NCBI GenBank assembly: GCA_016875335.1
Contig: VGRO01000003.1
Coordinates: 10,343-74,342, forward strand
From: Deltaproteobacteria bacterium
Lineage (GTDB): Bacteria; Myxococcota_A; UBA9042
Direction: 5' to 3'
Length of the DNA: 64,000 bases
The number at the start of each line of letters is the position of its first letter. Positions within the stretch are counted from its first letter, which is position 1. The notes under the pieces are model-generated. The model did no database searches, was not told the origin of the DNA, and saw only the letters and a program-made list of their open reading frames with translations. Below are positions 4,700 through 23,677 of the stretch, one piece after another. A program made the position numbers and the translations under genes.

Positions 4700-5809
<1,110 letters not shown>

Positions 5810-5937
5810 GGTGGTGCCTGCCTGCGAGCACTTCGCCCGCGCTGATGTCGCGGCCCGCGCAATGTGCGATGGCCGCGCCGGTCGAGAAAATCCTGCTTGC
5901 GCCTGTTGCGACTCCGCCGGCGCGAGGGGCGCGCCGA

Positions 5938-6567
<630 letters not shown>

Positions 6568-6655
6568 GGGTTCTCCGTATCGACAGGAAGCGTTGGGCAA
6601 TCGGCAGCCGCGGCGGAGGCGCCTCGAACGCCGCCTTGCGCGCCGGAAATCTTCG

Positions 6656-7066
<411 letters not shown>

Positions 7067-7215
7067 TTGGGGTTCCTTGTCTGCGATGTGCGTTGGCGAC
7101 GGAGCGCCATGTCGTGTGTTCTGGCGTCGCGGACGGGACAGGCCGACTCAGGCCGGGCGCCAGCCGATGGGCTGGGGGCCTGGCCGTTCGCCTTCGGCCA
7201 GCGGCGCCGCGGGCG

Positions 7216-7581
7216 CTACTTCTTCTTGATGGCCGTGCGCCGCGGGCCCTTGCGGGTGCGCGCATTGGTGTGGGTGCGCTGACCGCGGACTGGCAGGCCT
7301 TTGCGGTGCCGCAGACCGCGGTAGCAGCCCAGGTCCATCAGACGCTTGATGTCCATCGCGACCTGCCGCCGCAGATCGCCTTCGACCTTGTACTGGTTTT
7401 CCAGCACATCGCGGATGCGGACGATGTCCACCTCGGTCAGTTCGTCGGCCTTGCGCCCGAGCGGGACGCCCGCTTTGGAGCACACCTCGACGGCCACGCG
7501 CGGGCCAACGCCGTAGATCGAGCGCAGCGCGATCTCGATGCGCTTGTTGCGGGGCAGGTCCACGCCTGCAATTCGTGCCAT
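7216..7581 (-). CDS. rpsM: 30S ribosomal protein S13
   Basis: [27 protein letters not shown]...[25 protein letters not shown]. Confidence 0.95.
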
Positions 7582-7640
7582 GATCGTCTCCTACCGGAAA
7601 GCCGCGAGCGCGCGCCGAATGGGCTGCACCCGAAAAAGCG

Positions 7641-7754
7641 CTATCCCTGCCGTTGCTTGTGCTTGGGGGTCACGCAAATGACGCGCACGATGCCGCGGCG
7701 CTTGACCACACGGCACTGGTCGCAGATGGGTTTGACAGAAGCTCGTACTTTCAT
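7641..7754 (-). CDS. rpmJ: 50S ribosomal protein L36
   Basis: [37 protein letters not shown] (37 aa) is a classical L36 zinc-ribbon. Confidence 0.9.
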
Positions 7755-7890
7755 CGGATTACCTTGTGTATCTCGTTCTCGGCGCGGGCGAACCGGCCGC
7801 GAGGGGGCGGCAGTATACAGCAAGCTCGCGGTGGTGGGAAGCCCCGTTCGACTTCGGCCTTCCGTCGCCGCGGGCGGCAGGGTCGCTGCG

Positions 7891-8109
7891 TCACTTCGCG
7901 CGGTAGGTGATCCGCCCCCGCGACAGGTCGTAGGGACTCAGCGCCACCTTGACCTTGTCCCCCGGCAGGATGCGGATGAAGTGCATGCGCATCTTGCCCG
8001 AAACGTGGGCCAGCACCTTGTGGCCATTATCCAGCTGGACGCGGAACATGGCATTGGGCAACGGTTCGAGCACCGTGCCTTCGACCTCAATGGCGTCGTC
8101 TTTCGACAT
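7891..8109 (-). CDS. infA: translation initiation factor IF-1
   Basis: [72 protein letters not shown]. The start ATG at 8109 was verified. Confidence 0.93.
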
Positions 8110-8179
8110 CCAACTCCTTGCTGCCCGAAGGGGGCCGGTGTCGGCCGGGCCTCGGGCGCCATTACTCCGCGGATTCCGT

Positions 8180-8866
8180 CTAGAGCGTGCCCTCGCCCGC
8201 GTTGCCATGCCTGCGCAGGACGGCGACGGCGGCCTTGAGCACGATCTCGGGCGGTTGGTTGCCATCGACCTTTTCGATGACAGTCCCGTAGCGCTGCACC
8301 AAAGGTGCTGTCTGCGCCGCAAAAGCGTCCAAGCGTTTGCGAATGGTCGCGTCGTGGTCATCGCTGCGGTGGACGAGCGTGCCCCCGCAGCGATCGCACA
8401 CGCCGTCTTTGAGCGGGGGCGCGAACTCGACGTGGTGCACGTTGCCGCACGCCGGGCAGGTGCGGCGCCCGCTCAACCGGCGGACGACCGACTCGTTGGG
8501 CACGTCGATGAACAGGACGAGGTCGGGGGCAAGTCCCTCCGCGGCCAGTGCGTCGGCCTGCGGCAATGTGCGCGGAAACCCATCGAGCAGGAACCGCGGC
8601 GAGCCGTCCGTGTTGCGGCAGTCTGGCTGTTGGACGCGTTCGGAAATGAGCTTGACCATCACGTCGTCGGGCACCAACGCGCCGCGATCCATGAAGGTCT
8701 TGGCCAGCAGGCCCACCTGGCTGCCCGCGGCAACCGCCGCGCGCAACATGTCCCCCGTCGACAGGTGGGTCAGCCCGAATCGATCGACAAGACCCTTGGC
8801 GACCGTTCCCTTGCCCGCGCCAGGTGCGCCGACCAGGATGATCTTGTGCGCGGTCCGCGTGGTCAT
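8180..8866 (-). CDS. adk: adenylate kinase (zinc-lid type)
   Basis: The P-loop is [12 protein letters not shown] and the LID has the CPACG...CDRCG zinc knuckle. It sits between secY and infA as in spc/alpha operons, with no map gene present. Confidence 0.93.
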
Positions 8867-8923
8867 GTTGGCCTGCTTGCGGCGTTGCAGCGCCGCGCGG
8901 TGCGCGCGTACGCGGGTGCGGTG

Positions 8924-10252
8924 CTACACGTCATCGGAGCGCCGGCCACGCATGCGCGGACCCTTTTCGCCGCCAAAACTTTCGTAGGAGCGGCTGATGA
9001 GGTGACTCTCAATCTGCTTGGCGGTGTCCATGGCCACGCCCACGACGATGAGCAGAGACGTGCCGCCGTAGTAGAACGGAACATTGAAGTTGGTCTGAAG
9101 CAGCGTCGGCAGGACACACACGCTGCTGATGTATAGCGCGCCGCCAAAGGTGATGCGCGACAGCACGCGGTCGATGTACTCGGCGGTATCTTTGCCGGCG
9201 CGCACGCCGACTACAGCGCCGCCGCCCTTGCGCAGGTTGTCGGCGATATCGACCGAGTTGAAGGTGACTGCCGTATAGAAGTAGCAGAAGAACACGATGA
9301 GCACGACGTACATCGCGTTGTACATGATGCGTCCGGGAGACAGAGCGTTGACCACGCCGACTAGGAAGCTGGCGTCTGGGAAGAAGTTGGCCAATGTCGC
9401 CGGGAACATGAGAATCGACGACGCAAAGATGGGTGGAATCACACCGGCCGAATTGACCTTGAGCGGCAAGTAGCTGTTCGCTGCGGCCACAGTTTCGCGG
9501 TTGACCGTGCGTTTGGCGTACTGCACGAGGATGCGCCGCTGTGCGCTCTCGAAGTAGACAATGACGGCGATGACGGCCACCACCAGGGCGCCAATGAGGA
9601 TGAGGATCGGCACCGGGATCTGGCCGTTGGTCACCAGTTCCCAGGTTTGCTTGACGGCGCTCGGCAAGCCAGCGACGATGCCAGCGTAGATGACCAACGA
9701 AATGCCGTTGCCGATGCCGCGCTCGGTGATCTGCTCGCCGAGCCACATGATGAACGTGGTGCCCGCGGTCAGGGACAACACGCACAGCGCCCGAAAGCCC
9801 CACCCGGCGTTGTGGACGACGCCGCCCAGTGCGGCCGAGTTCATGCCTTCGAGCCAGATGGCGAGCGCGGTGCCTTGGATGATCGACAGGAACACGCAAC
9901 CGTATCGAGTCCACTGGTTGATCTTGCGCCGGCCGGCCTCGCCCTCCTTGTTCAGGCGTTCGACGGCGGGGACGACCACCGTCAACAGCTGCAGGATGAT
10001 GCTTGCAGAAATGTACGGCATGATGCCGAGCGCGAAGATCGAGACCTGCTGCAGCGCGCCGCCCGAGAACAGGTCGATGAGCCCCATCAGTCCGCCGCCC
10101 TTGCTGTTCATGTAGTCGGCCATCACGTGGCGGTCCACGCCGGGCACGGTCACGAACACGCCGATGCGGTAGATGGCCAACATCGCCAGGGAAAACAGCA
10201 CCCGGTTCTTGAGTTCCGGGACCTTGGCGATGTTCTGCAGTACGTTGGCCAC
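8924..10252 (-). CDS. secY: preprotein translocase subunit SecY
   Basis: [40 protein letters not shown]..., about 10 transmembrane helices, 442 aa. Confidence 0.95.
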
Positions 10253-10330
10253 GGACGACCTCTTGCGGTGGTGCGGTGTGCGGCGGACAGCGGGGCAGCG
10301 GGTCGAGCCGAATTCCGCGTATGGGGGCGG

Positions 10331-10780
10331 TTAGACGCCGGTCGTCTGGCAGCTGCCGCCGGCCTGCGCGATCTTGGCCTGGGCCGATTCGCTGAACTTG
10401 TCCGCCACCACGGTCAGGGCGCGGTCGAGTTCGCCTCCGCCCAGGATCTTGACCCCGTCCCAGTTGCCGTTGACCAGTCGAACGGCGCGCAGCGCCATCT
10501 CGTCGACCCGGCTCCCTGGCTCGAAGATCGCCAGGTCTCCGACATTGACCGGCGCGAACCGGGTGCGAAACAGATTGGTGAAGCCGATTTTCGGCAAGCG
10601 CCGCTGGATCGGCATCTGACCGCCCTCGAAGGAGTTGCCGACGTCGGGGGACTTGCGCGCCAATTGGCCTTTGTGGCCCTTGCCGGCCGTCTTGCCAAGG
10701 CCCGAACCTGCGCCGCGGCCGAGCCGGCGAGTCTGCACGTTCGCGCCACGCGGCGCCTGGAGATTGCTGAGTTCCTTCAT
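10331..10780 (-). CDS. rplO: 50S ribosomal protein L15
   Basis: MKELSNLQAPRGANVQTRRLGRGAGSGLGKTAGKGHKGQLARKS...KILGGGEL. The start was chosen at the internal ATG (10780); the ORF-track start at 10864 would add 28 atypical residues. Confidence 0.9.
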   Translation of the reverse strand: MKELSNLQAPRGANVQTRRLGRGAGSGLGKTAGKGHKGQLARKSPDVGNSFEGGQMPIQRRLPKIGFTNLFRTRFAPVNVGDLAIFEPGSRVDEMALRAVRLVNGNWDGVKILGGGELDRALTVVADKFSESAQAKIAQAGGSCQTTGV

Positions 10781-11003
10781 GGTGTCCGCTGCCTGCTGTC
10801 GCACGGTCTGCGACGGTCGGAAAGTGCTGGCCGGGTCTGCCGACGGCAGCTGCGACGGGTGCAATCGCGTTCCCGTTCGCCCTTGTTGTGCCGGCCGGCC
10901 GGCGCCCGCGGGGCCGGCGGTGATCGTTGAACGGTCCCTATCTGGTGGAACCGAGAGGCCTTCTTGCTACCTTCCCGCACGGGCGGTGGGTTGCAGGGCC
11001 GCA

Positions 11004-11032
11004 ATTATAGGTGGGATGCGCAAGCGGAACAA
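11004..11032 (-). promoter_or_regulatory. Candidate internal sigma-70-type promoter (TTGTTC-N17-TATAAT on the minus strand) in the rpsE-rplO spacer that replaces rpmD
   Basis: The minus strand reads ttgttc cgcttgcgcatcccacc tataat. A perfect TATAAT is conspicuous in a 70% GC genome. The 285-nt spacer 10781..11065 has no L30-like ORF in any minus-strand frame. Confidence 0.3.
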
Positions 11033-11065
11033 GGCCCGCGCGCGCCGGACCGCATCCTTGCTCGG

Positions 11066-11623
11066 CTAGCCGCGCAAGGACTCGGCGGCCTTGCCCAAAC
11101 GGGCGGCCACTTCGTCCACCGTGCGCAACTGGCGCAACGCCGCCACAGTGGCGCGAACCACGTTGTGCGGGTTGTTGCTGCCGATGCACTTGGTCACGAC
11201 ATCGCGGACCCCGGCCTGTTCGAGCACGGCGCGAACGGCACCACCGGCAATCACGCCGGTGCCCTTGCCCGCGGGCTTGAGCAGAACCTGGCCCGCGCCA
11301 TAGTGGCCAATGACGTCGTGCGGAATCGAGCCTTTGACGAGCGGCACGTCGAACATCTGCTTCTTGGCCTGGTCCGTGCCTTTGCGAATAGCCTCTGGCA
11401 CTTCGCTCGCCTTGCCCATGCCGATGCCGACCTTGCCCTTGCCGTCGCCGACCACGATGAGCGCTGAAAAGCTGAAGCGCCGACCGCCCTTGACGACCTT
11501 GGCCGTGCGGTTGATCGCGACCGTAGCGCTGCCGAACTCGTCCTTCTCGGCGGCTTGGGCATCGTTGCGGCGCGGCTGGCGCGGTTCGCGTTGGTTGCGG
11601 TTTTCTTTGGTGGGTTCCGACAT
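11066..11623 (-). CDS. rpsE: 30S ribosomal protein S5
   Basis: [48 protein letters not shown]...[14 protein letters not shown]. Confidence 0.95.
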
Positions 11624-11626
11624 GGT

Positions 11627-12031
11627 CTATTGCTCCTGGGGCGCCGCAGCGGTCGAGCCCGTGTGACCTTCCTTGGACAGCAGGCCCAACTCGTGTGCGG
11701 CCTTGGAGACAGCGGCGATCCGGCCGGTATAGTGGAAGCCGTTGCGGTCGAACACCAGCTTGGTGACGCCCTTGGCCAAGGCGCGCTCAGCGCACAGCCG
11801 CCCGACCGTCTCAGCAATCGCGGTCTTGCTGCCCTCCATCGACCGCACGGCGGTTTCGACGGAACTGGCGGCTGCGAGCGTTGTGCCGCTCTCGTCGTCG
11901 ATGACTTGGGCGTAGATGTGCTTGGCAGAGCGGAACACCGACATCCGCGGCCGCTCCGGCGTTCCCTTGAGGCCAAAGCGCATGCGAACCTTGCGTTGTT
12001 CGCGCGCATCGGCATAGCGTTTGATCGACAT
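11627..12031 (-). CDS. rplR: 50S ribosomal protein L18
   Basis: [42 protein letters not shown]...[26 protein letters not shown]. Confidence 0.93.
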
Positions 12032-12209
12032 CTGAACCTTCCTTCGTCAAGTCGGCACCTGTGGGTGCCAAACCTGCGTCCTTGACCTCCGTGCGCCTGC
12101 CGCCGGAGTCGGCGGCCAGCGGCGCGGGGGCGGATACCCACGCCGGATCGTTTCGATCGCGCGCGAACTGCGCAGGCCCCAGCGACCCGGAGCCGAAATC
12201 CCGCCCCGA

Positions 12210-12791
12210 TTACTTCTTCTTGGCGCCCTTGCCACCGGACTTGCCGGCCTTCTGGCGCACCTTCTCACCGCTGTAGCGGATGCCCTTGCCCTTGTAGGGC
12301 TCCGGCGACCGAATCGAGCGAAGGGTCGCAGCCGTCTGGCCCAACAGTTCCTTGTCGGTCGAGGTCAACTCGATGTGGGTGAGCTTGTCGATCTTGCACT
12401 CGACGCCCTTGGGCAGCACGAAGTGAACCGGGTGCGAATAGCCGACCGACAGCTTGAGTGCTTGGCCGATCTGCTCGACCTTGAAGCCGACGCCTTGGAC
12501 GTCGAGTTCCTTCTTGTAGCCCGCCGTGACGCCCTGGACCATGTTGCGCAGCAGATTGCGGCCCAGGCCGTGCAAGGCTTTGCCGGTGCGCGTGTTCTCC
12601 ACTGGATGCACCAGAATCTGGCCCGCCTGTTGCTCAAAGGTCACACCCTTGAACGTGCGGACCAGCGTTCCGAGCGGCCCCTTGACCGTGACCACGTCGC
12701 CCGCCACCGCCACGGTGACCTTGGGCGGCAGCGCGACCGGGGCCTTGCCGACCCGCGATACCACGAATTCGCTCTGACCTTCGCTACTCAT
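12210..12791 (-). CDS. rplF: 50S ribosomal protein L6
   Basis: MSSEGQSEFVVSRVGKAPVALPPKVTVAVAGDVVTVKGPLGTL...YKGKGIRYSGEKVRQKAGK. Confidence 0.95.
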   Translation of the reverse strand: MSSEGQSEFVVSRVGKAPVALPPKVTVAVAGDVVTVKGPLGTLVRTFKGVTFEQQAGQILVHPVENTRTGKALHGLGRNLLRNMVQGVTAGYKKELDVQGVGFKVEQIGQALKLSVGYSHPVHFVLPKGVECKIDKLTHIELTSTDKELLGQTAATLRSIRSPEPYKGKGIRYSGEKVRQKAGKSGGKGAKKK

Positions 12792-12894
12792 CTCTGCTCC
12801 CGGCCCCTGGGGTCCTGCGGCCCGATGCGGGCGGCGGATTCGGCTGGCCTTGGTTGCGCCGAAGCGCGATTGGGCACGCCCAACGGGCGACCGC

Positions 12895-13296
12895 CTACCA
12901 CACCGTGCACAGCAGCTCGCCGCCCACGTTGAGTTTGCGGGCCTTGGCGCCCGTCATCACGCCCGACGACGTGGACAGGATGGCGATGCCGAGGCCGTTC
13001 TTGACCTTGGGGATGTCAGAAACCTGGACGTATTTGCGCTGGCCCGGGCGCGAGACGCGGCGCAGCCCGCTGATCGCGTTGGACTTGTCCGCGCAATAGC
13101 GCAAGGTCAGCACCAGCTTGTCCTGCGCTTGCTCGCCCACGTCTTCGGCCAACTCGGCGACATACCCTTCCTCGTGCAGGATGCCGGCAATGGCTTTGAC
13201 CGTGTTCGATGCGGGGACCGCCACGCTCGGGTGGCGCGCCAGAATCGCGTTGCGCACGCGGGTCAGGAAATCGGCAATGGGATCACTCGTGGGCAT
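12895..13296 (-). CDS. rpsH: 30S ribosomal protein S8
   Basis: MPTSDPIADFLTRVRNAILARHPSVAVPASNTVKAIAGILHEEGYV...GLGIAILSTSSGVMTGAKARKLNVGGELLCTVW. Confidence 0.95.
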   Translation of the reverse strand: MPTSDPIADFLTRVRNAILARHPSVAVPASNTVKAIAGILHEEGYVAELAEDVGEQAQDKLVLTLRYCADKSNAISGLRRVSRPGQRKYVQVSDIPKVKNGLGIAILSTSSGVMTGAKARKLNVGGELLCTVW

Positions 13297-13392
13297 TTCA
13301 CACCTTCTGGTTCGACGCGGGGGTCGAATGCTTGGGGTCCTCTCCAGCAGCTTGTGGCGGACGCGGCGAGGGCTCGCGGAAGCGGCCGAATC

Positions 13393-13578
13393 TCACCACG
13401 ACGCCTTGGTCACACCCGGCAGTTCGCCGCGCACCGCCAACTGCCGAAAGCAGATGCGGCACAGCCCGAACTTGCGCAGGAAGGCCTTGGGACGGCCGCA
13501 GCGCTGGCAGCGGCTGTGCTGCCGTGTCGAGAATTTTGGCTTGCGCGCGGCGGCGATGATCTTGCTGGTCTTGGCCAT
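13393..13578 (-). CDS. rpsZ: 30S ribosomal protein S14, type Z (zinc-binding, 61 aa)
   Basis: [61 protein letters not shown] has the CxxC...CxxC of S14Z. Confidence 0.9.
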
Positions 13579-13614
13579 GGTGGTTGTCTCTCGCTGGGTG
13601 GAGCAGTTGTGCGG

Positions 13615-14157
13615 TTACTTGCGGAAGGGCATGCCGAGGGCCGCCAACAGGGCCTTGCTCTGGGCGTCATCCCCGGCGGTGGTGACCATCGTGATGTTCA
13701 TGCCGCGGACCTTGTCGACCTGGTCGTAGTTGATCTCGGGGAAGATGATCTGCTCCTTGAGGCCCATGGTGAAGTTGCCGCGGCCATCGAAGCCCTTGGG
13801 ACTGACGCCACGAAAGTCGCGGACGCGCGGCAAGGCGATCGTCACCAAGCGGTCCAGGAACTCCCACATGCGATCGCGGCGCAAGGTGACCTTGGCGCCG
13901 ATCGCTTGGTTCTCGCGCAGCTTGAAGTTGGCGATCGACTTGCGCGACCGCGTCACGATCGGTTTCTGGCCCGAGAGCATCGTCAGTTGCTCGACCGCCT
14001 TGTCGACGATCTTGGGGTTCTGGGTCGCCTCGCCCAGGCCGAAGTTGATGACGATCTTTTGCAGGCGTGGCACCTGCATGGGATTCGTGAGCCCGAATTC
14101 CGCGGTCAACTTGGCGATGACCTCGGCCTTGTACTTTTGCTGGAGACGCGCTGCCAT
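13615..14157 (-). CDS. rplE: 50S ribosomal protein L5
   Basis: [44 protein letters not shown]...[30 protein letters not shown]. Confidence 0.95.
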
Positions 14158-14244
14158 GGACTACCTGCCTCTTTCAGCTTGCTTCCGCTCCAGCCTGCGC
14201 CGCAACCCTTTTGCGGCGACTGACGCGCTGGGCGAACTCCCTTG

Positions 14245-14577
14245 CTAACCGACCGGGTCGAGAACTTCGCCGGTCTTGTGCACCACGCGGACCTTCTTGG
14301 GGCCGTTGGCCGTATCCACGGTTTGGAAGCCGACGCGCACCGGCTTGCCCGTGGTGGGGCTGACCAGCGCGACGTTGCTGATGTGGATCGGGGCCTCGCG
14401 GTCCTGGATGCCGCCCTGCTCGCCTTCGCGGCGCGCCTTGACGTGCTTCTTGACCTTGTTCCAGCCCTCGACGATCACGGCTTCGCCATCGCGAGCCATG
14501 CGCAGCACCTTGCCGCTCTGGCCCTTGTCCTTGCCGGCCAGGATGGCCACCGTGTCGCCCTTGCGAATCTTGCGCAT
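14245..14577 (-). CDS. rplX: 50S ribosomal protein L24
   Basis: [49 protein letters not shown] is a KOW domain. The start ATG at 14577 was verified. The ORF-track extension to 14952 is in-frame read-through of the upstream gap. Confidence 0.9.
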
Positions 14578-14686
14578 CTGCTGCCTCGCGTTTTTCTGTA
14601 CTCGCGATTGTCTGCCTGCTCGCGATTGTCTGCCTGTTCGCTGTGTCGGTCGTTCAAAGTCGCCCCAAAGGGCGCGCGGGCGACGG

Positions 14687-15055
14687 CTACAGCACCTCTG
14701 GGGCCAGTGACACGATCTTGGTGAACTTCTTGGCGCGCAGTTCGCGCGCCACGGGTCCGAAGATGCGGGTGCCGACCGGTTCCTTCTGGTTGTTGATGAC
14801 GACGGCGGCGTTGCCGTCGAACTTGATGTAGCTGCCGTCCTCGCGGCCCACTTCCTTGGTGGTGCGGACGATGACGGCCTTGACCACATCGCCCTTCTTG
14901 ACCTTGGATTTGGGCAGCGCCTCGCGCACCGAGCAGACGATGATGTCGCCAAGCGACGCGTACTTGCGCTTGCTGCCGCCCAGCACCTTGATGCAGCGCA
15001 GTTGCTTGGCGCCCGAATTGTCCGCGACCGTGAGGTAGGTTTCTTGCTGAATCAT
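14687..15055 (-). CDS. rplN: 50S ribosomal protein L14
   Basis: [65 protein letters not shown]. The ATG at 15055 was verified. Confidence 0.95.
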
Positions 15056-15200
15056 GGCCGTCTCCTTACCGGTGGCCGAACCGATCGGCCTGCGGTGGCG
15101 AGCCCCGCAAACTGTGCGGGGCAGGGGGGCAGCGACCCGCGGGTCACTGCACCGGTGCACGTTCGACGGCGCCCGCGGACGAGCTGCCGCCGATGGCGGA

Positions 15201-15509
15201 CTAGTCCTCTTTCTTGCGCAACGTGGACTTGTAGACCCAGCGTTTGTGCTTGGACAACGGCCGGCATTCTTCGATGACCACCTGGTCGCCCACTGCGCAC
15301 GCGCCGGCCTCGTCGTGGGCCATGTAGCGCGCGCGGCGGCGCACGTACTTGCGGTACTTGGCGTGCAGGAACACGCGGGTCACGGAGACGACGGCGGTCT
15401 TCTCCATCTTGGTGGACACCACGATGCCAGTCATGCGCCGACGGTGGCGGTCGAGGTGGTTGCCCTGGTCCTGGGCAGCCTCGTTGTGGTTCTCTGCGGT
15501 CTCGGTCAT
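15201..15509 (-). CDS. rpsQ: 30S ribosomal protein S17, possibly with an N-terminal extension of about 25 aa
   Basis: [64 protein letters not shown]. An alternative start at M26 (15434) would give a canonical 77-aa S17. Confidence 0.88.
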
Positions 15510-15559
15510 GGGATGCTCCCTGTGGTCCGGCGTGCCGGGCGCGCTGCGGTGCGACGCCG

Positions 15560-15760
15560 CTACCCTTGGATGCCCAGTTCGATTTCGCGCAGGCGGGTCG
15601 CCACGCGCGCCAACTCGCGCCGCGTCGTGCGCAGCTTGATCGGGCTCGACAGTTGCTTGGTGTGGTGCTGGAAACGCAGGCGGAACAGCTCGTCGCGCAG
15701 TTCGGACTCGCGCTTCTGCAACTCGGCCTGGGTCAACTCGGCGATGACGGTCTTTTTCAC
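15560..15760 (-). CDS. rpmC: 50S ribosomal protein L29 (GTG start)
   Basis: (V)[61 protein letters not shown]. The GTG at 15760..15758 overlaps the rplP stop by 4 nt. Confidence 0.85.
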
Positions 15761-16173
15761 AGGATTTCTCCCCGGCTGACGACCTTGCACTTGATCGGCA
15801 GCTTGTGGCCGGCGTCCGCCAACGCGCCCATGGCGACTGCGGCGTCGTCGGATTGGATTTCGTACATCATCGTGCCAGGCTGCACGACGGCGACCCAGTG
15901 GTCTGGCGGTCCCTTGCCCTTGCCCATGCGGGTTTCCAGGGGCTTCTTGGTCACTGGCTTTTGCGGGAAGATGCGGATCCAGACCCGCGCATCGCGCTTC
16001 ATTTTGCGGGTCATCGAGATACGCGCGGCCTCGATCTGCCGGCTGGTCAGCCAGCCACACTCCAGCGCCATCAGGCCGAAGTTGCCGAACGACACCTCGC
16101 TGCCGGTGTGGGCGAAGCCGCGGGACTTGCCCTTCATCACTTTGCGCCACTTGACGCGCTTGGGAGCCAGCAT
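15757..16173 (-). CDS. rplP: 50S ribosomal protein L16
   Basis: [56 protein letters not shown]. Confidence 0.95.
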
Positions 16174-16230
16174 GGCTGAACCTCTCGAATCTGGGCCACC
16201 GCGCCGAAGGGCCGGGGCCGCGTTGGAAAA

Positions 16231-16890
16231 CTACTGGGCGCGCGCCTGAGCGTGCTGTCCGCGTTCGGCAAGGATGTCGCCGTGGTAGATCCAGGTCTTG
16301 ACGCCGATGACACCGTAGGTGGTCCTGGCCAGGGCCTCGCCGTACTGGATGTCGGCGCGCAGCGTATGCAAGGGCACGCGGCCCTCGCGGTACCACTCAT
16401 ACCGTCCCATCTCGGCGCCACCCAGGCGGCCCGAACAGGCGACGCGGATGCCCTTGATGCCGAACTTTTGCGCAGCCTGCATGGCCTTGCGCATGGCGCG
16501 GCGGAACGCGACCCGGCGCTCGAGCTGCGTTGCGATGTTCTCGGCGACCAGTTGCGCGTCGGTTTCGGCGCGGCGCACTTCATGGATGGTCAGCACGATT
16601 TCGCCTTTGGCCAGCTTCTGCAGCTGGGCCTTGAGCTTCTCATGCTCCTTGCCCTTGGGACCGATCAGCACACCGGGGCGCGCCGTGTGCACGCCGACGC
16701 GAATCTGGCGGGCGCGGCGCTCGACATCGACCTTGGCGATGCCGGCGTGGTTCATCTTTTCCTTGATCGTCTTGCGGATCGCCAGATCCTCGTGCAGCCA
16801 AGCCTTGTAGTTCTTCTCTTCGAACCACTTGGAGTTCCAGCTGCGGATGACGCCCAGGCGCAGTCCATTCGGATGGCTTTTTTGTCCCAC
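16231..16890 (-). CDS. rpsC: 30S ribosomal protein S3
   Basis: [45 protein letters not shown] (KH domain)...[31 protein letters not shown]. Confidence 0.95.
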
Positions 16891-16939
16891 GGTTGCCTCT
16901 CTTGGTCGCTTGCAAATTCGGTGGCGCGCGCGCAGCGGC

Positions 16940-17350
16940 CTACAGCGCCACGCCCAGTTGCAGGGTCACGTGGCTGGTCTTCTTGAGGATGCGCGTCGCG
17001 CGACCTTGGGCCCGCGGCGTCCAGCGCTTCATGGTCTCTGCCTGGTCGACGAAGATGGTCTCGACGTACAAGTCGTCGACATCGACCCCGCCTACGAACC
17101 GCGCATTGGCGACGGCGCTGAACAGCAGCTTGCGCAGCGGTTCGGCCGCGAGCTTGGGCGTGAACTGCAACAGGTCCAGCGCCTCTTGAACGCCCTTGCC
17201 GCGAATGCGGTCCGCCACGACCCGCACCTTGCGGGGAGCAATGTGCAGACCCTTGAGCTTGACGGCGGCCAGAGGCGCTGTGCCGTCGATCTGCACGTCG
17301 CCGACATCGGCAGCGGCCTGCTGGTCTTCGTTCTGCTGGGTGTCGTCCAT
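16940..17350 (-). CDS. rplV: 50S ribosomal protein L22 with an acidic N-terminal extension
   Basis: [44 protein letters not shown]...[16 protein letters not shown]. The start was chosen at the ATG at 17350 ([11 protein letters not shown]...). Confidence 0.9.
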
Positions 17351-17408
17351 GACTGTCTCCCGATGGCCGCCCCGAGGCGGCGCGCGGTGTGCCGAGGTGC
17401 GGCGCCGC

Positions 17409-17687
17409 CTACTTCTTCTTGACCTTCTTGTCTGCGCTGTGACCAAAGAAGGTGCGGGTCGGGGCGAACTCGCCCATCTTGTGACCCACCATGTTCTCGG
17501 TCACGAACACCGGCACGAACTTCTTGCCGTTGTGCACCATGAAGTTCAGACCGACGAAATCGGGGTAGATGGTCGAGCGCCGCGACCAGGTCTTGATCGG
17601 CCGCTTGTTGTTGGTGCGGTTGGCGTCCTCGACTTTGGCCTTGAGGTGGCCGTCGACGAACGGGCTTTTCTTGACGGAACGGGGCAT
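17409..17687 (-). CDS. rpsS: 30S ribosomal protein S19
   Basis: [20 protein letters not shown]...[45 protein letters not shown]. Confidence 0.95.
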
Positions 17688-17720: not shown

Positions 17721-18554
17721 TTAGCGCGCGCCCTTGGGCCGGCGGGCGACGATGAGGTGGTTCGTGCGCTTGTTCTTGCGCGTCTTGGGGCCCTTGGTCT
17801 TCCAGCCCCACGGCGAGGTCGGGTGGCGACCACCCGAGGTGCGGCCTTCGCCGCCGCCGAGCGGGTGATCGACCGGGTTCATCGCGACGCCGCGCACGCA
17901 CGGCCGGATGCCCAACCAGCGCGAGCGACCGGCCTTGCCCAGGCTGATCTTGTCATGGTCGACGTTGCTGGTCTGTCCGATGGTCGCCTTGCAGTCCTTG
18001 GTGACCTTGCGAAGTTCGCCGGACGGAAGACGCAGCAAAGCGTGTTTGCCTTCCTTGGCCATCAACTGTGCAGCGGTGCCCGCGGCGCGGCAGACCTGAC
18101 CGCCCTTGCCGGCCTGCAGTTCGACGTTGTGGACCATCGTGCCGACGGGAATCGCCTCAAGCGGCAGCGTGTTGCCGGGCTTGATGTCGGCGTTCCTGCT
18201 GGCGATGACCGCGTCGCCGACCTTGAGGCCAACCGGCGCGAGGATGTAGCGCTTCTCGCCGTCCGCATAGTTCAGCAGCGCGATACGCGCCGAGCGGTTG
18301 GGGTCGAACTCGATGGTTGCAACCTTGGCCGGCACTGCGACCTTGTCGCGCTTGAAGTCGATGATGCGGTAGTGGCGCTTGTGGCCGCCGCCGCGCTGCC
18401 ATACGGTGATGCGGCCATTGTTGGTGCGACCCTTGGGGCCGTGCAGCGGGGCGAGCAGCGGGCCGTGCGCCTCGCTGGTCGTGACGTCGCTGAAATCGTC
18501 GAGCCGGAGCTGGCGGGTGCCGGCGGAGACGGGTCGATACGACTTGATGCCCAT
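17721..18554 (-). CDS. rplB: 50S ribosomal protein L2
   Basis: [25 protein letters not shown]...[41 protein letters not shown]. Confidence 0.95.
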
Positions 18555-18662: not shown

Positions 18663-18953
18663 CTAGGCCACGAAGTAGTCGATGACTTGGCCCTCGGCCA
18701 GCTTGACGAAAGCCTTCTTGGTCTGCGCGCGATTGCCGACGAACTTGCCGACTCGGCGCTGCTTGCCCTGCAACTGCATGGTGCGCACGCCTACGACCGT
18801 CACGCCGAAAAGCGCCTCGACCGCTGCCCTGATTTGCTTCTTGTTCGCGTCGCGGTGGACCTGGAACGCGTACGCGTTGTCGGTGTTGCTCACCGTCGTG
18901 TTCTTTTCGCCGGACAGCGGCTTTTCCAGGATTTGGGTCAGGTGCAGGGCCAT
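18663..18953 (-). CDS. rplW: 50S ribosomal protein L23
   Basis: MALHLTQILEKPLSGEKNTTVS...KQIRAAVEALFGVTVVGVRTMQLQGKQRRVG. Confidence 0.93.
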   Translation of the reverse strand: MALHLTQILEKPLSGEKNTTVSNTDNAYAFQVHRDANKKQIRAAVEALFGVTVVGVRTMQLQGKQRRVGKFVGNRAQTKKAFVKLAEGQVIDYFVA

Positions 18954-18993: not shown

Positions 18994-19614
18994 CTAGCCC
19001 AAGCGCTCTTCCAGGGCCTTGGCGGCGTCGACGCTCAACACCAGCCGGTCGTATTTGAGGACGTCGAACACGTTGACGCCCTCGGCGCGAATGTACTTGG
19101 CTGTCGGCAAATTGCGGATCGACAGGTGCAGATGCGACTCTTCGTGGCGCGTGACCACCAGCGCGTTTGAGGCGCCCAGGCGGGCCAGCGTGGCCGCCGC
19201 TTCCTTGGTCTTGGGGGCGCCCATGCCGAACGCGTCGACCACGACCAACTCGCCGTTGGCGTAGCGCAGCGACAGGGCCGACCTGAGCGCGGCGCGCCGC
19301 ACCTTCTTGGGTGTGCTGTAACTGTAGTCGCGCGGGTGCGGGCCATGCGCGATGCCGCCGTGGACGAAGATCGGCGACTTGCGCGACCCGTGGCGTGCGT
19401 TGCCCGACCCCTTCTGCTTGTACGTCTTGCGGGTGGTGCCGTGCACGGTGGTGCGCGTCTTGGTCGAATGCGTACCCTGGCGGCGGTTGGCCAATTGGTT
19501 GCGCACGACCTCCCAGTGCAGGAAGGGCTTGACCTCGGCCGCAAACACATCGTCGGACAGCTCGATTTCGCCGACCACCTGGGCTTGGGTATTGAGGACG
19601 TTCATCGTTGGCAT
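18994..19614 (-). CDS. rplD: 50S ribosomal protein L4
   Basis: [54 protein letters not shown]...[12 protein letters not shown]. Confidence 0.95.
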
Positions 19615-19675
19615 GGCTGCCTCTCGGTCTGCTGGCGACGCGGCGGTGGCGTCGGGTTCCTGGTGCGGGCGCGGA

Positions 19676-19984
19676 TCAGGTCTTGATTTCGACCGCCACG
19701 CCGGCGGCCAGATCGAGCTTCATCAGCGCGTCGAGCGTCTGCTGGGTCGGGTCCAGGATGTCGATGAGGCGCTTGTGCGTGCGCACCTCGAACTGCTCGC
19801 GGCTCTTCTTGTCGACGTGCGGGGACCGCAACACCGTGTAGCTGTTGATGCGCGTGGGCAGCGGGATGGGACCCGCGACGCGGGCGCCCGTGGTGCGCAC
19901 GGTGTTGATGATTTCGCTGACCGACTGGTCGAGCAGCTTGAAATCGTAGGCCTTGAGGCGGATGCGAATGCGTTGGCCGGCCAT
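19676..19984 (-). CDS. rpsJ: 30S ribosomal protein S10
   Basis: [77 protein letters not shown]. Confidence 0.95.
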
Positions 19985-20014
19985 GGTGGAACCTCCGAGG
20001 CGAAACGCCTGGTA

Positions 20015-22102
<2,088 letters not shown>

Positions 22103-22198: not shown

Positions 22199-22669
22199 CT
22201 ACCAGCGATAGTGGGCGAAGGCCTTGTTGGCCTCAGCCATCCGGTGGACGTCTTCGCGCTTCTTGACCGCGGCGCCGCGGCCCTGCGATGCGTCCAGGAT
22301 TTCGTTGGCCAGTTTCTCGACCATGCCCTTTTCGCCGCGAGCGCGGGCGGCGGCGATGAGCCAACGCATCGACAGCGCGGCGCGGCGTTCGGGGCGGATT
22401 TCGACCGGTACCTGGTAGTTCGAGCCACCGACGCGGCGCGACTTGACTTCGACGGCCGGCCGCACGTTTTCGAGGGCCTGGCGGAAGAGCTTGACCGGTT
22501 CGTCCTTGCCGCGCGCCTCGACGCGTTCGAGGGCCGCGTACAGCAGCGCCTCGGCCGTCGACTTCTTGCCGTCGAGCATCAGACAGTTGGCGAACTTGCC
22601 GACCATCTGATCGCCGTATTTGGGGTCGCGCAGGACGGGGCGGTGGGGTACTTCGCGGCGACGGGGCAT
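22199..22669 (-). CDS. rpsG: 30S ribosomal protein S7
   Basis: [47 protein letters not shown]...[22 protein letters not shown]. Confidence 0.95.
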
Positions 22670-22720: not shown

Positions 22721-23128
22721 CTACTTCTTGCCTTTGCTCGCGGCGGCGGCGGCGCCTTCCTTGGGCCGCTTTGCGCCGTACTTGCTGCGGCTCTTGCGGC
22801 GGTTGGCGACGCCGGTGGTGTCGAGCGAGCCTCGCACGATGTGGTAGCGCACGCCCGGCAGGTCTTTGACGCGACCGCCGCGGATGAGCACGATCGAGTG
22901 TTCCTGCAGGTTGTGGCCGACGCCCGGGATGTACGACGTCACTTCCATGCCGTTGGAGAGGCGCACGCGCGCGACCTTGCGCAGGGCCGAGTTCGGCTTC
23001 TTGGGCGTGGTGGTGTACACGCGGGTGCACACGCCGCGGCGCTGCGGACAGGCGTCGAGCGCAGGCGACTTGGTCTTGCGGTGCTTGGCTGCGCGGCGAT
23101 CACGAACGAGCTGGTTGATCGTGGGCAT
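22721..23128 (-). CDS. rpsL: 30S ribosomal protein S12
   Basis: [78 protein letters not shown]. The ATG at 23128 was verified. The ORF-track extension to 23368 is upstream read-through. Confidence 0.95.
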
Positions 23129-23677
23129 CTGGGGCTGTCTCCGGGGGCGCTGGCGTTTCCCGTTGTCGAACCGTCGGTTGTGGACCCGCCGTCCAGCTGT
23201 GCGCCATACGCGCCATCGCCGGACGATGCGGCTCCATGGTCCTCGCGGCGGGGGCACCGCCGAACGTGGACCAGAGCGGCGTTTGCGACATTGCGCACCC
23301 AAGGGCCCGGTCCCAGCAGAACCAAGCCAAGGGCGACGGCAGTGTGCCGCGTCGCCAGGAGTCACCACTGAATTCGCAGCCTTTCCGCCCTCTGCGGATG
23401 TGGCGTGCGACCGATGGCGCCCATCGTTCCTTCGCGGAGGGCCGGGTCCGTGTAGGCCGCGGCCTCTTGCAGCACCAGGTGATCAATCCGTTGATCGCCC
23501 GCCAGCCGTTGATTCGGCTGATTTTCGTGCTGCGAAGGCTCCTTTCCCGATGGGAGGGCGGGCTGTCGGGCAGCCCGGTTGTCGCGCAAAACCCCGAGGG
23601 GGCCGGCGCGGGGGCGAAAGTTTACGCCTGCGCGGCCTGGGTGTCAACGGGGTTTTCTGGCCGGGGCGCACTGGATG

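Follow-up and report, generated by a model that had tools for sequence, protein, structure and literature searches.

In Escherichia coli, the S10 operon is arranged as rpsJ-rplC-rplD-rplW-rplB-rpsS-rplV-rpsC-rplP-rpmC-rpsQ, with rplC, the gene for ribosomal protein uL3 (L3), directly downstream of rpsJ. The protein is established as essential and as universally conserved. In cyanobacteria and plastids, the cluster is broken at its 5' end throughout the lineage: rpsJ remains with the str operon behind tufA, and rplC heads the rplD-rplW-... string. The window, that is, the whole 64-kb stretch of DNA analysed here, carries every gene of the E. coli operon other than rplC, arranged on one strand in the E. 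coli order and continuing into the spc and alpha clusters; it differs in being without rplC and without tuf. As in cyanobacteria and plastids, the break in myxobacteria is lineage-wide, lies at the 5' end of the S10 cluster and parts rpsJ from rplC; unlike in those organisms, rpsJ and rplD stay together and rplC alone is gone. The arrangement is the standard gene order of the window's lineage and not a peculiarity of one contig.

The genes of the window locus were identified with NCBIfam equivalog models, and uS10, uL4, uL23, uL2, EF-G and uS7 all scored well over the cut-offs (Table 1). As in the canonical arrangement, rpsJ comes first in the S10 string, though it is joined to fusA by 30 nt without a leader before it, and the order rplD-rplW-rplB-rpsS-rplV-rpsC-rplP-rpmC-rpsQ is kept on one strand. 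The canonical position of rplC directly downstream of rpsJ is instead taken by a short spacer, in which tblastn and HMM searches found no L3. The earlier note had described rpsJ as followed directly by rplD with 61 nt between them, and the coordinates and the NCBIfam models confirm this exactly to the base. Beyond rplB, the cluster runs through rpsS, rplV, rpsC, rplP, rpmC, rpsQ, rplN, rplX, rplE, rpsN, rpsH, rplF, rplR, rpsE, rplO, secY, adk, rpsM, rpsK and rpsD (5938-6600).

Table 1. Features of the str-S10-spc-alpha region of the window, in the direction of transcription.
Feature	Position	Strand	Evidence and remarks
sigma-70-like promoter candidate, TTGACA-17-TAAACT	23619-23647	-	upstream of rpsL; consensus match only
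rpsL (uS12)	22721-23128	-	starts MPTINQL; homologues in the related loci L001-L005 match PF00164
rpsG (uS7)	22199-22669	-	TIGR01029, 222.5 bits
fusA (EF-G)	20015-22102	-	TIGR00484, 1120.9 bits; 30-nt gap to rpsJ (19985-20014)
rpsJ (uS10)	19676-19984	-	NF001861, 164.8 bits (cut-off 85); TIGR01049, 153.5 bits
rpsJ-rplD spacer	19615-19675	-	61 nt; position of rplC in other bacteria
rplD (uL4)	18994-19614	-	TIGR03953, 236.9 bits (cut-off 130.1)
rplW (uL23)	18663-18953	-	NCBIfam equivalog model
rplB (uL2)	17721-18554	-	TIGR01171, 413.7 bits
rest of the contiguous S10-spc-alpha cluster	5938-17687	-	20 genes, rpsS to rpsD

L3 was sought throughout the window with two tblastn probes and a profile HMM. 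The E. coli L3 probe, by which a real L3 is found at 3e-58, gave a best E-value of 2.6 and no L3 in the 64-kb window, and the Deferrisomatales L3 probe gave nothing at E<1. The L3 HMM was built from 40 sequences; it scores true L3 at 1.7e-119 and detects L3 in every canonical locus fetched. When it was run with hmmsearch against all six-frame ORFs of the window of at least 25 aa, the best E-value was 3.9, and no window-encoded protein among these ORFs fits uL3 (TIGR03625, L3_bact) as judged by this model. The two probes and the HMM thus bear out the claim of the earlier note that the window holds no L3-like ORF. A hidden or degenerate rplC in the spacers was ruled out by the absence of any HMM signal and by the spacers being too short, and no L3 fragment was detected in any S10-L4 spacer of the window or of the related loci.

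The rpsJ-rplD spacer contains no terminator, no promoter-like site and no remnant of L3. Its fold is no better than that of shuffled sequence (z = -0.33), its sequence is unconserved among relatives except for the ribosome-binding site, and no Rfam family, ribosomal leaders included, reached the gathering score in the whole 64-kb window; a regulatory RNA within the 61 nt was ruled out on these three grounds. The conserved element is a GAGAGG site at 19620-19625, five nt before the rplD ATG, from which rplD would be translated. In the closest sequenced relative (L001, the same contig as L011; GCA_009692465.1), the spacer (5750-6000) is 251 nt long, as against 61 nt in the window, and it is filled with short tandem repeats, namely two copies of CAGCAGCGCCAAACGT and three of CACACGCCCACAAGCG.

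The 30 nt between fusA and rpsJ appear too short for an S10 leader or promoter of the E. coli type, and they gave no Rfam match at the gathering score. The L4-responsive S10 leader was defined in E. coli and Gammaproteobacteria, and the account in PMC3616713 presents such leaders as narrowly distributed. On the coding strand between 18500 and 23800, no terminator-like site was found, and the candidate upstream of rpsL is the sole promoter-like site. Judging from the spacing and the absence of terminator-like sites, the simplest reading is that the same-strand string rpsL-rpsG-fusA-rpsJ-rplD-rplW-rplB-... is probably transcribed from upstream of rpsL, so that the str genes would run into the S10, spc and alpha genes on one long transcript. 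L3 would then be made from a separate transcription unit at another locus.

The junction was next compared across related bacteria. Six contigs recovered through L4 homologues at 84, 75, 62, 56, 55 and 53% identity, which came from the NCBI metagenome-assembled genomes (MAGs) GCA_009692465.1, GCA_020632995.1 and GCA_049840955.1 and from ENA and Logan assemblies, all have S10 followed by L4 (6/6). A scan with an L4 alignment, covering one genome per GTDB species, returned 80 loci with flanks of up to 10 kb a side, which were annotated with S10, L3 and L4 HMMs. S10-L4 without L3 anywhere in these flanks was found in 38 of the 80, one of them a contig already among the six. Most of the 38 carry the titles Myxococcales, Myxococcota, Polyangiaceae, Nannocystis, Nannocystineae, Sandaracinaceae, Labilithrix, Sorangium or Polyangium, and the set includes the complete chromosome of Sorangium sp. 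So ce1078 (NZ_CP150357.1) and the isolate draft of Polyangium jinanense SDU13. Seven of the 38 have vaguer titles, i.e. Deltaproteobacteria, delta proteobacterium, Proteobacteria and one 'Enterobacteriaceae'. The last of these, 'uncultured Enterobacteriaceae bacterium' (L009, CAYHHL010000014.1), has 64% GC, an L4 73% identical to that of the window and the S10-L4 junction, and its title is almost certainly a mislabel.

The other 42 of the 80 loci, from Firmicutes, Chloroflexota, Aquificota, Binatia, Thermodesulfobacteriota, one alphaproteobacterium and others, read S10-L3-L4 without exception, as does a Deferrisomatales contig whose L4 is 54% identical to that of the window. Altogether, the junction without L3 occurs in 43 assemblies of related bacteria other than the window; over all sampled loci, S10-L4 is found in 44/44 myxobacterial ones (window included) and S10-L3-L4 in 44/44 non-myxobacterial ones. 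Among the loci lacking L3, the median S10-L4 spacer is 27 nt, and the extremes are about -22 and 251 nt. The earlier note had called the arrangement a rare break. It is indeed unusual when set against the non-myxobacterial loci, all of which keep L3 in place; however, it is standard within the lineage, and the synteny comparison with related Myxococcota showed the relatives to share rpsJ-rplD, so that the junction is not specific to this contig.

Other features of the cluster vary among these loci. The S10 clusters of the other Myxococcota sampled share rpsJ-rplD and have no rplC within flanks of up to 10 kb a side; outside the sub-clade of the window, L4 identity to the window protein drops to only 49-56%. 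In most of these clusters tuf stands before rpsJ, whereas in the window it does not. Between fusA and rpsJ, tuf is absent from the window and its closest relatives (L001-L004), and EF-Tu must be encoded elsewhere in this sub-clade; distant myxobacterial loci with tuf at this site are L005 (4330-5532), L006 (3412-4602) and that of Sorangium (L057). At the rpsQ (S17) position of L003 (9884-10459), the product is 191 aa long, about twice the usual length of S17, and has no Pfam match on record. In Sorangium sp. So ce1078 (L057, 12065-18700) and Polyangium jinanense (L053, 3204-4100), the S10 cluster stops after rpsS and is followed by unrelated DNA of 72-84% GC or by an opposite-strand gene, with no S3 or L16 within 10 kb. 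The cluster ending there means that a second break of the S10 cluster exists in these Polyangiaceae.

The closest relatives of the window's L4 and S10 belong to Myxococcales MAGs (about 83-84% and 98% identity, respectively), and the window combines a junction too short for rplC with ribosomal proteins that group with Myxococcota. A neighbour-joining tree of S10, L4, L23, L2 and S19 (773 columns) placed 36 of 37 loci lacking L3 in one clade, the window within it, a monophyly unsupported by bootstrap (exact set in 0/200, best clade in 3/200), as are the deep nodes. In the same tree, the window sits in a sub-clade with Lake Baikal MAGs. The exceptions are L005, which lacks L3 and falls just outside the clade, and the high-GC alphaproteobacterial locus L055, which intrudes into it. 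The window is from a deep-branching member of Myxococcota.

The taxonomic reach of the junction was considered further with published classifications. According to the GTDB classes in supplementary file 4 of PMC6704655, the genome SLNH (L016) belongs to Polyangia/Kofleriales and SKQC (L031) to the class UBA4248, so the trait exceeds the class Polyangia. For Myxococcus xanthus DK1622, published locus tags assign MXAN_3298 to tuf (EF-Tu) and MXAN_3303 to rpsS, which contradicts an assignment of MXAN_3299 to rplC. The five MXAN tags after tuf fit rpsJ, rplD, rplW, rplB and rpsS, and none is left over for rplC, by locus-tag arithmetic and not by sequence. This arithmetic suggests that the class Myxococcia shares the trait, which would therefore have originated at or near the root of the phylum. 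Collectively, the evidence points to an S10 junction lacking L3 as a trait of most or all Myxococcota.

The gene exists in Myxococcales, since phylogenetic work has drawn RplC sequences from 40 of their genomes (PMC7310880; PMC4765838). A detached rplC (protein P0576) was found on SLQV01000017.1 and SKZE01000299.1, contigs of two MAGs that GTDB classifies as Myxococcota, Polyangia, Polyangiales and that have Sandaracinaceae-related 16S. The two contigs (L170 and L171) are 99.9% identical and therefore represent one species. P0576 scores 242 bits against TIGR03625, the bacterial L3 equivalog model (cut-off 143); its true start is probably MNTNLGLLG, giving 226 aa. No S10 or L4 was found within 10 kb of this gene; the S10-L4 junction was seen in other Sandaracinaceae and Polyangiales genomes, not in the two MAGs themselves.

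The gene order at the detached locus is glutamate-cysteine ligase (GCS2-type)-rplC-FtsJ/RlmE-like methyltransferase (8440-11554 of L170, that is, of SLQV01000017.1; likewise in L171). The ligase is of the plant type. The methyltransferase matches models of RlmE, the 23S rRNA U2552 2'-O-methyltransferase, at 1e-34 to 1e-37, below their equivalog cut-offs. Further genes around rplC encode Ser/Thr kinases, PEGA-domain proteins, GlnD, ApbE, PanB and PanC. Upstream of rplC lies a non-coding stretch of about 300 nt, in which TTGACA stands about 45 nt and GGAGA 6 nt ahead of the ATG, and the 63 nt between rplC and the methyltransferase gene hold no terminator-like site; from this layout, the two genes are probably co-transcribed. 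Homologues of the neighbours of the detached rplC were absent from the 64-kb window. The RplC sequences of the 40 Myxococcales genomes and the detached Polyangiales gene support the statement of the earlier note that L3 must be encoded elsewhere, and we infer that the window's own genome carries rplC at another locus.

Several other searches for a myxobacterial rplC did not find one. In a protein search started from the Deferrisomatales L3, none of the best 120 matches was myxobacterial; all belonged to other phyla, with identities of 56% or more. A search of cluster-representative L3 proteins yielded 150 representatives, which were sorted by Arg/Lys ratio, N- and C-terminal extensions and loop motifs. 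Several 'extended' L3 proteins considered as myxobacterial candidates were in fact frameshift fusions of L3 and L4, and such fusions therefore place the gene in a canonical S10-cluster context; P0328 and P0497 were likewise rejected, their genomic context being canonical S10-L3-L4. A strict high-GC DNA pattern for GKGF...HG was dropped, as it matched no known L3 gene and nothing in viral contigs; the scan of viral contigs for L3 also found none, and PMC8436480 lists no L3 in its supplements. When metagenomes were scanned with an L3 alignment, the result was 79 loci that were canonical or cut by the contig end beside S10 or L4, and one detached L3. Among canonical clusters of other phyla, an insertion of about 2 kb separates rplC from rplD in one metagenome contig (L139, 10612-12606), and another locus (L008, 374-1252) carries, immediately after S10, an L3 extended by 82 aa at its N-terminus.

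The one detached metagenome L3 (L142, 1-800 of contig Ga0272442_10004029) was rejected as a myxobacterial candidate, since a protein search places it in Planctomycetota. This rplC, too, lies apart from any ribosomal cluster, the 10 kb downstream containing no L4, and belongs to a different phylum (its homologues are named Planctomycetota). The gene has TTGACT-17-TATGAT upstream and a GC-rich hairpin with a T-run downstream, and looks monocistronic from these elements. It provides an independent instance of an rplC located away from the S10 cluster.

Considering these results together, we regard it as highly probable that the ancestor of Myxococcota moved rplC out of the S10 cluster, that the rpsJ-rplD order was inherited and that L3 is supplied from a separate locus. 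The ancestral exit of rplC would have placed rpsJ directly before rplD, and the arrangement would have been handed down since; we infer a single ancestral event. The deletion or misassembly that the earlier note had envisaged would mean that rplC was collapsed in assembly, or lost in one strain, in the window contig only. Although the window does come from a metagenome-assembled genome, its L4 being 100% identical to a protein of a MAG labelled 'Deltaproteobacteria bacterium', this explanation is refuted by the identical junction in 43 other assemblies, produced by different groups with different assemblers and including the closed chromosome of one isolate and the draft of another; as independent assemblies carry the same junction, a contig-private deletion or collapse is excluded, and no spacer retains a fragment of L3. 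Its probability is accordingly negligible. Chance is not at issue, because the observation is a gene order and the question is one of artefact versus biology. It is just as hard to credit that the lineage truly lacks L3, or has replaced it with a non-homologous or unrecognisably divergent protein. The window yielded no L3, and neither did the 43 related loci over flanks of up to 10 kb a side or the best-scoring matches of two L3 protein searches; against this stand the established universal conservation and essentiality of uL3, the RplC sequences of the 40 Myxococcales genomes and a Polyangiales L3 that scores above the TIGR03625 cut-off.

The origin of the present gene copy was also weighed. 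A xenologous displacement, by which a foreign rplC entered the ancestor at a new site and the resident copy was lost afterwards, would fit the detached Polyangiales L3 being only 42-54% identical to every reference L3 compared and carrying the HGTHEYRRHGGSIG loop variant, which is closer in type to Binatia and some unplaced lineages than to Deferrisomatales and Thermodesulfobacteriota; the free-standing Planctomycetota gene shows, moreover, that rplC can live outside the cluster. However, no donor stands out, identity to all phyla being about equally low, as would be the case for an ancient gene passed down vertically in a deep phylum, and the detached Planctomycetota L3 is itself only about 48% identical to the Polyangiales one. 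We therefore consider displacement unlikely. Several independent losses of rplC in different myxobacterial lineages appear less probable still. The deep nodes of the ribosomal-protein tree are unresolved, and the cluster is plastic within the phylum, with tuf present or absent before rpsJ and a break after rpsS in Sorangium and Polyangium, all of which would leave room for repeated loss; yet rplC is missing from 44/44 sampled myxobacterial loci (window included) and retained in none, the sampling covers Polyangiales, Kofleriales/Nannocystineae, UBA4248 and, as judged from locus tags, Myxococcia, and one early event is far more parsimonious.

The window contig is not misassembled at this site, and annotation pipelines should not flag its missing rplC. 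For Myxococcota, the rpsJ-rplD junction offers a simple synteny marker that seems to be universal (44/44 versus 0/44) and may be of use in binning or classifying contigs. Public genomes have shown the arrangement for years, and our literature search found no publication describing a clade-wide rpsJ-rplD rearrangement. A single exit of rplC early in Myxococcota would mean that even the most conserved gene string of bacteria can be stripped of an essential gene at the base of a large phylum, and it raises the question of how L3 stoichiometry is kept when rplC is transcribed apart from its usual partners. The neighbouring positions of rplC and the rlmE-like gene in one Polyangiales species suggest that functions around the peptidyl-transferase centre may have been regrouped. 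It is conceivable, though doubtful, that the loss of rplC from the S10 operon marks Myxococcota as a phylum-wide synapomorphy and that the gene was rewired into a conserved two-gene unit with rlmE, the gene for the 23S rRNA A-loop methyltransferase, so that L3 supply would be co-regulated with late 50S maturation and independent of the other S10-operon proteins. If this holds true, the rplC-rlmE unit could matter for development or sporulation, or for the tolerance of self-made antibiotics that target the peptidyl-transferase centre.
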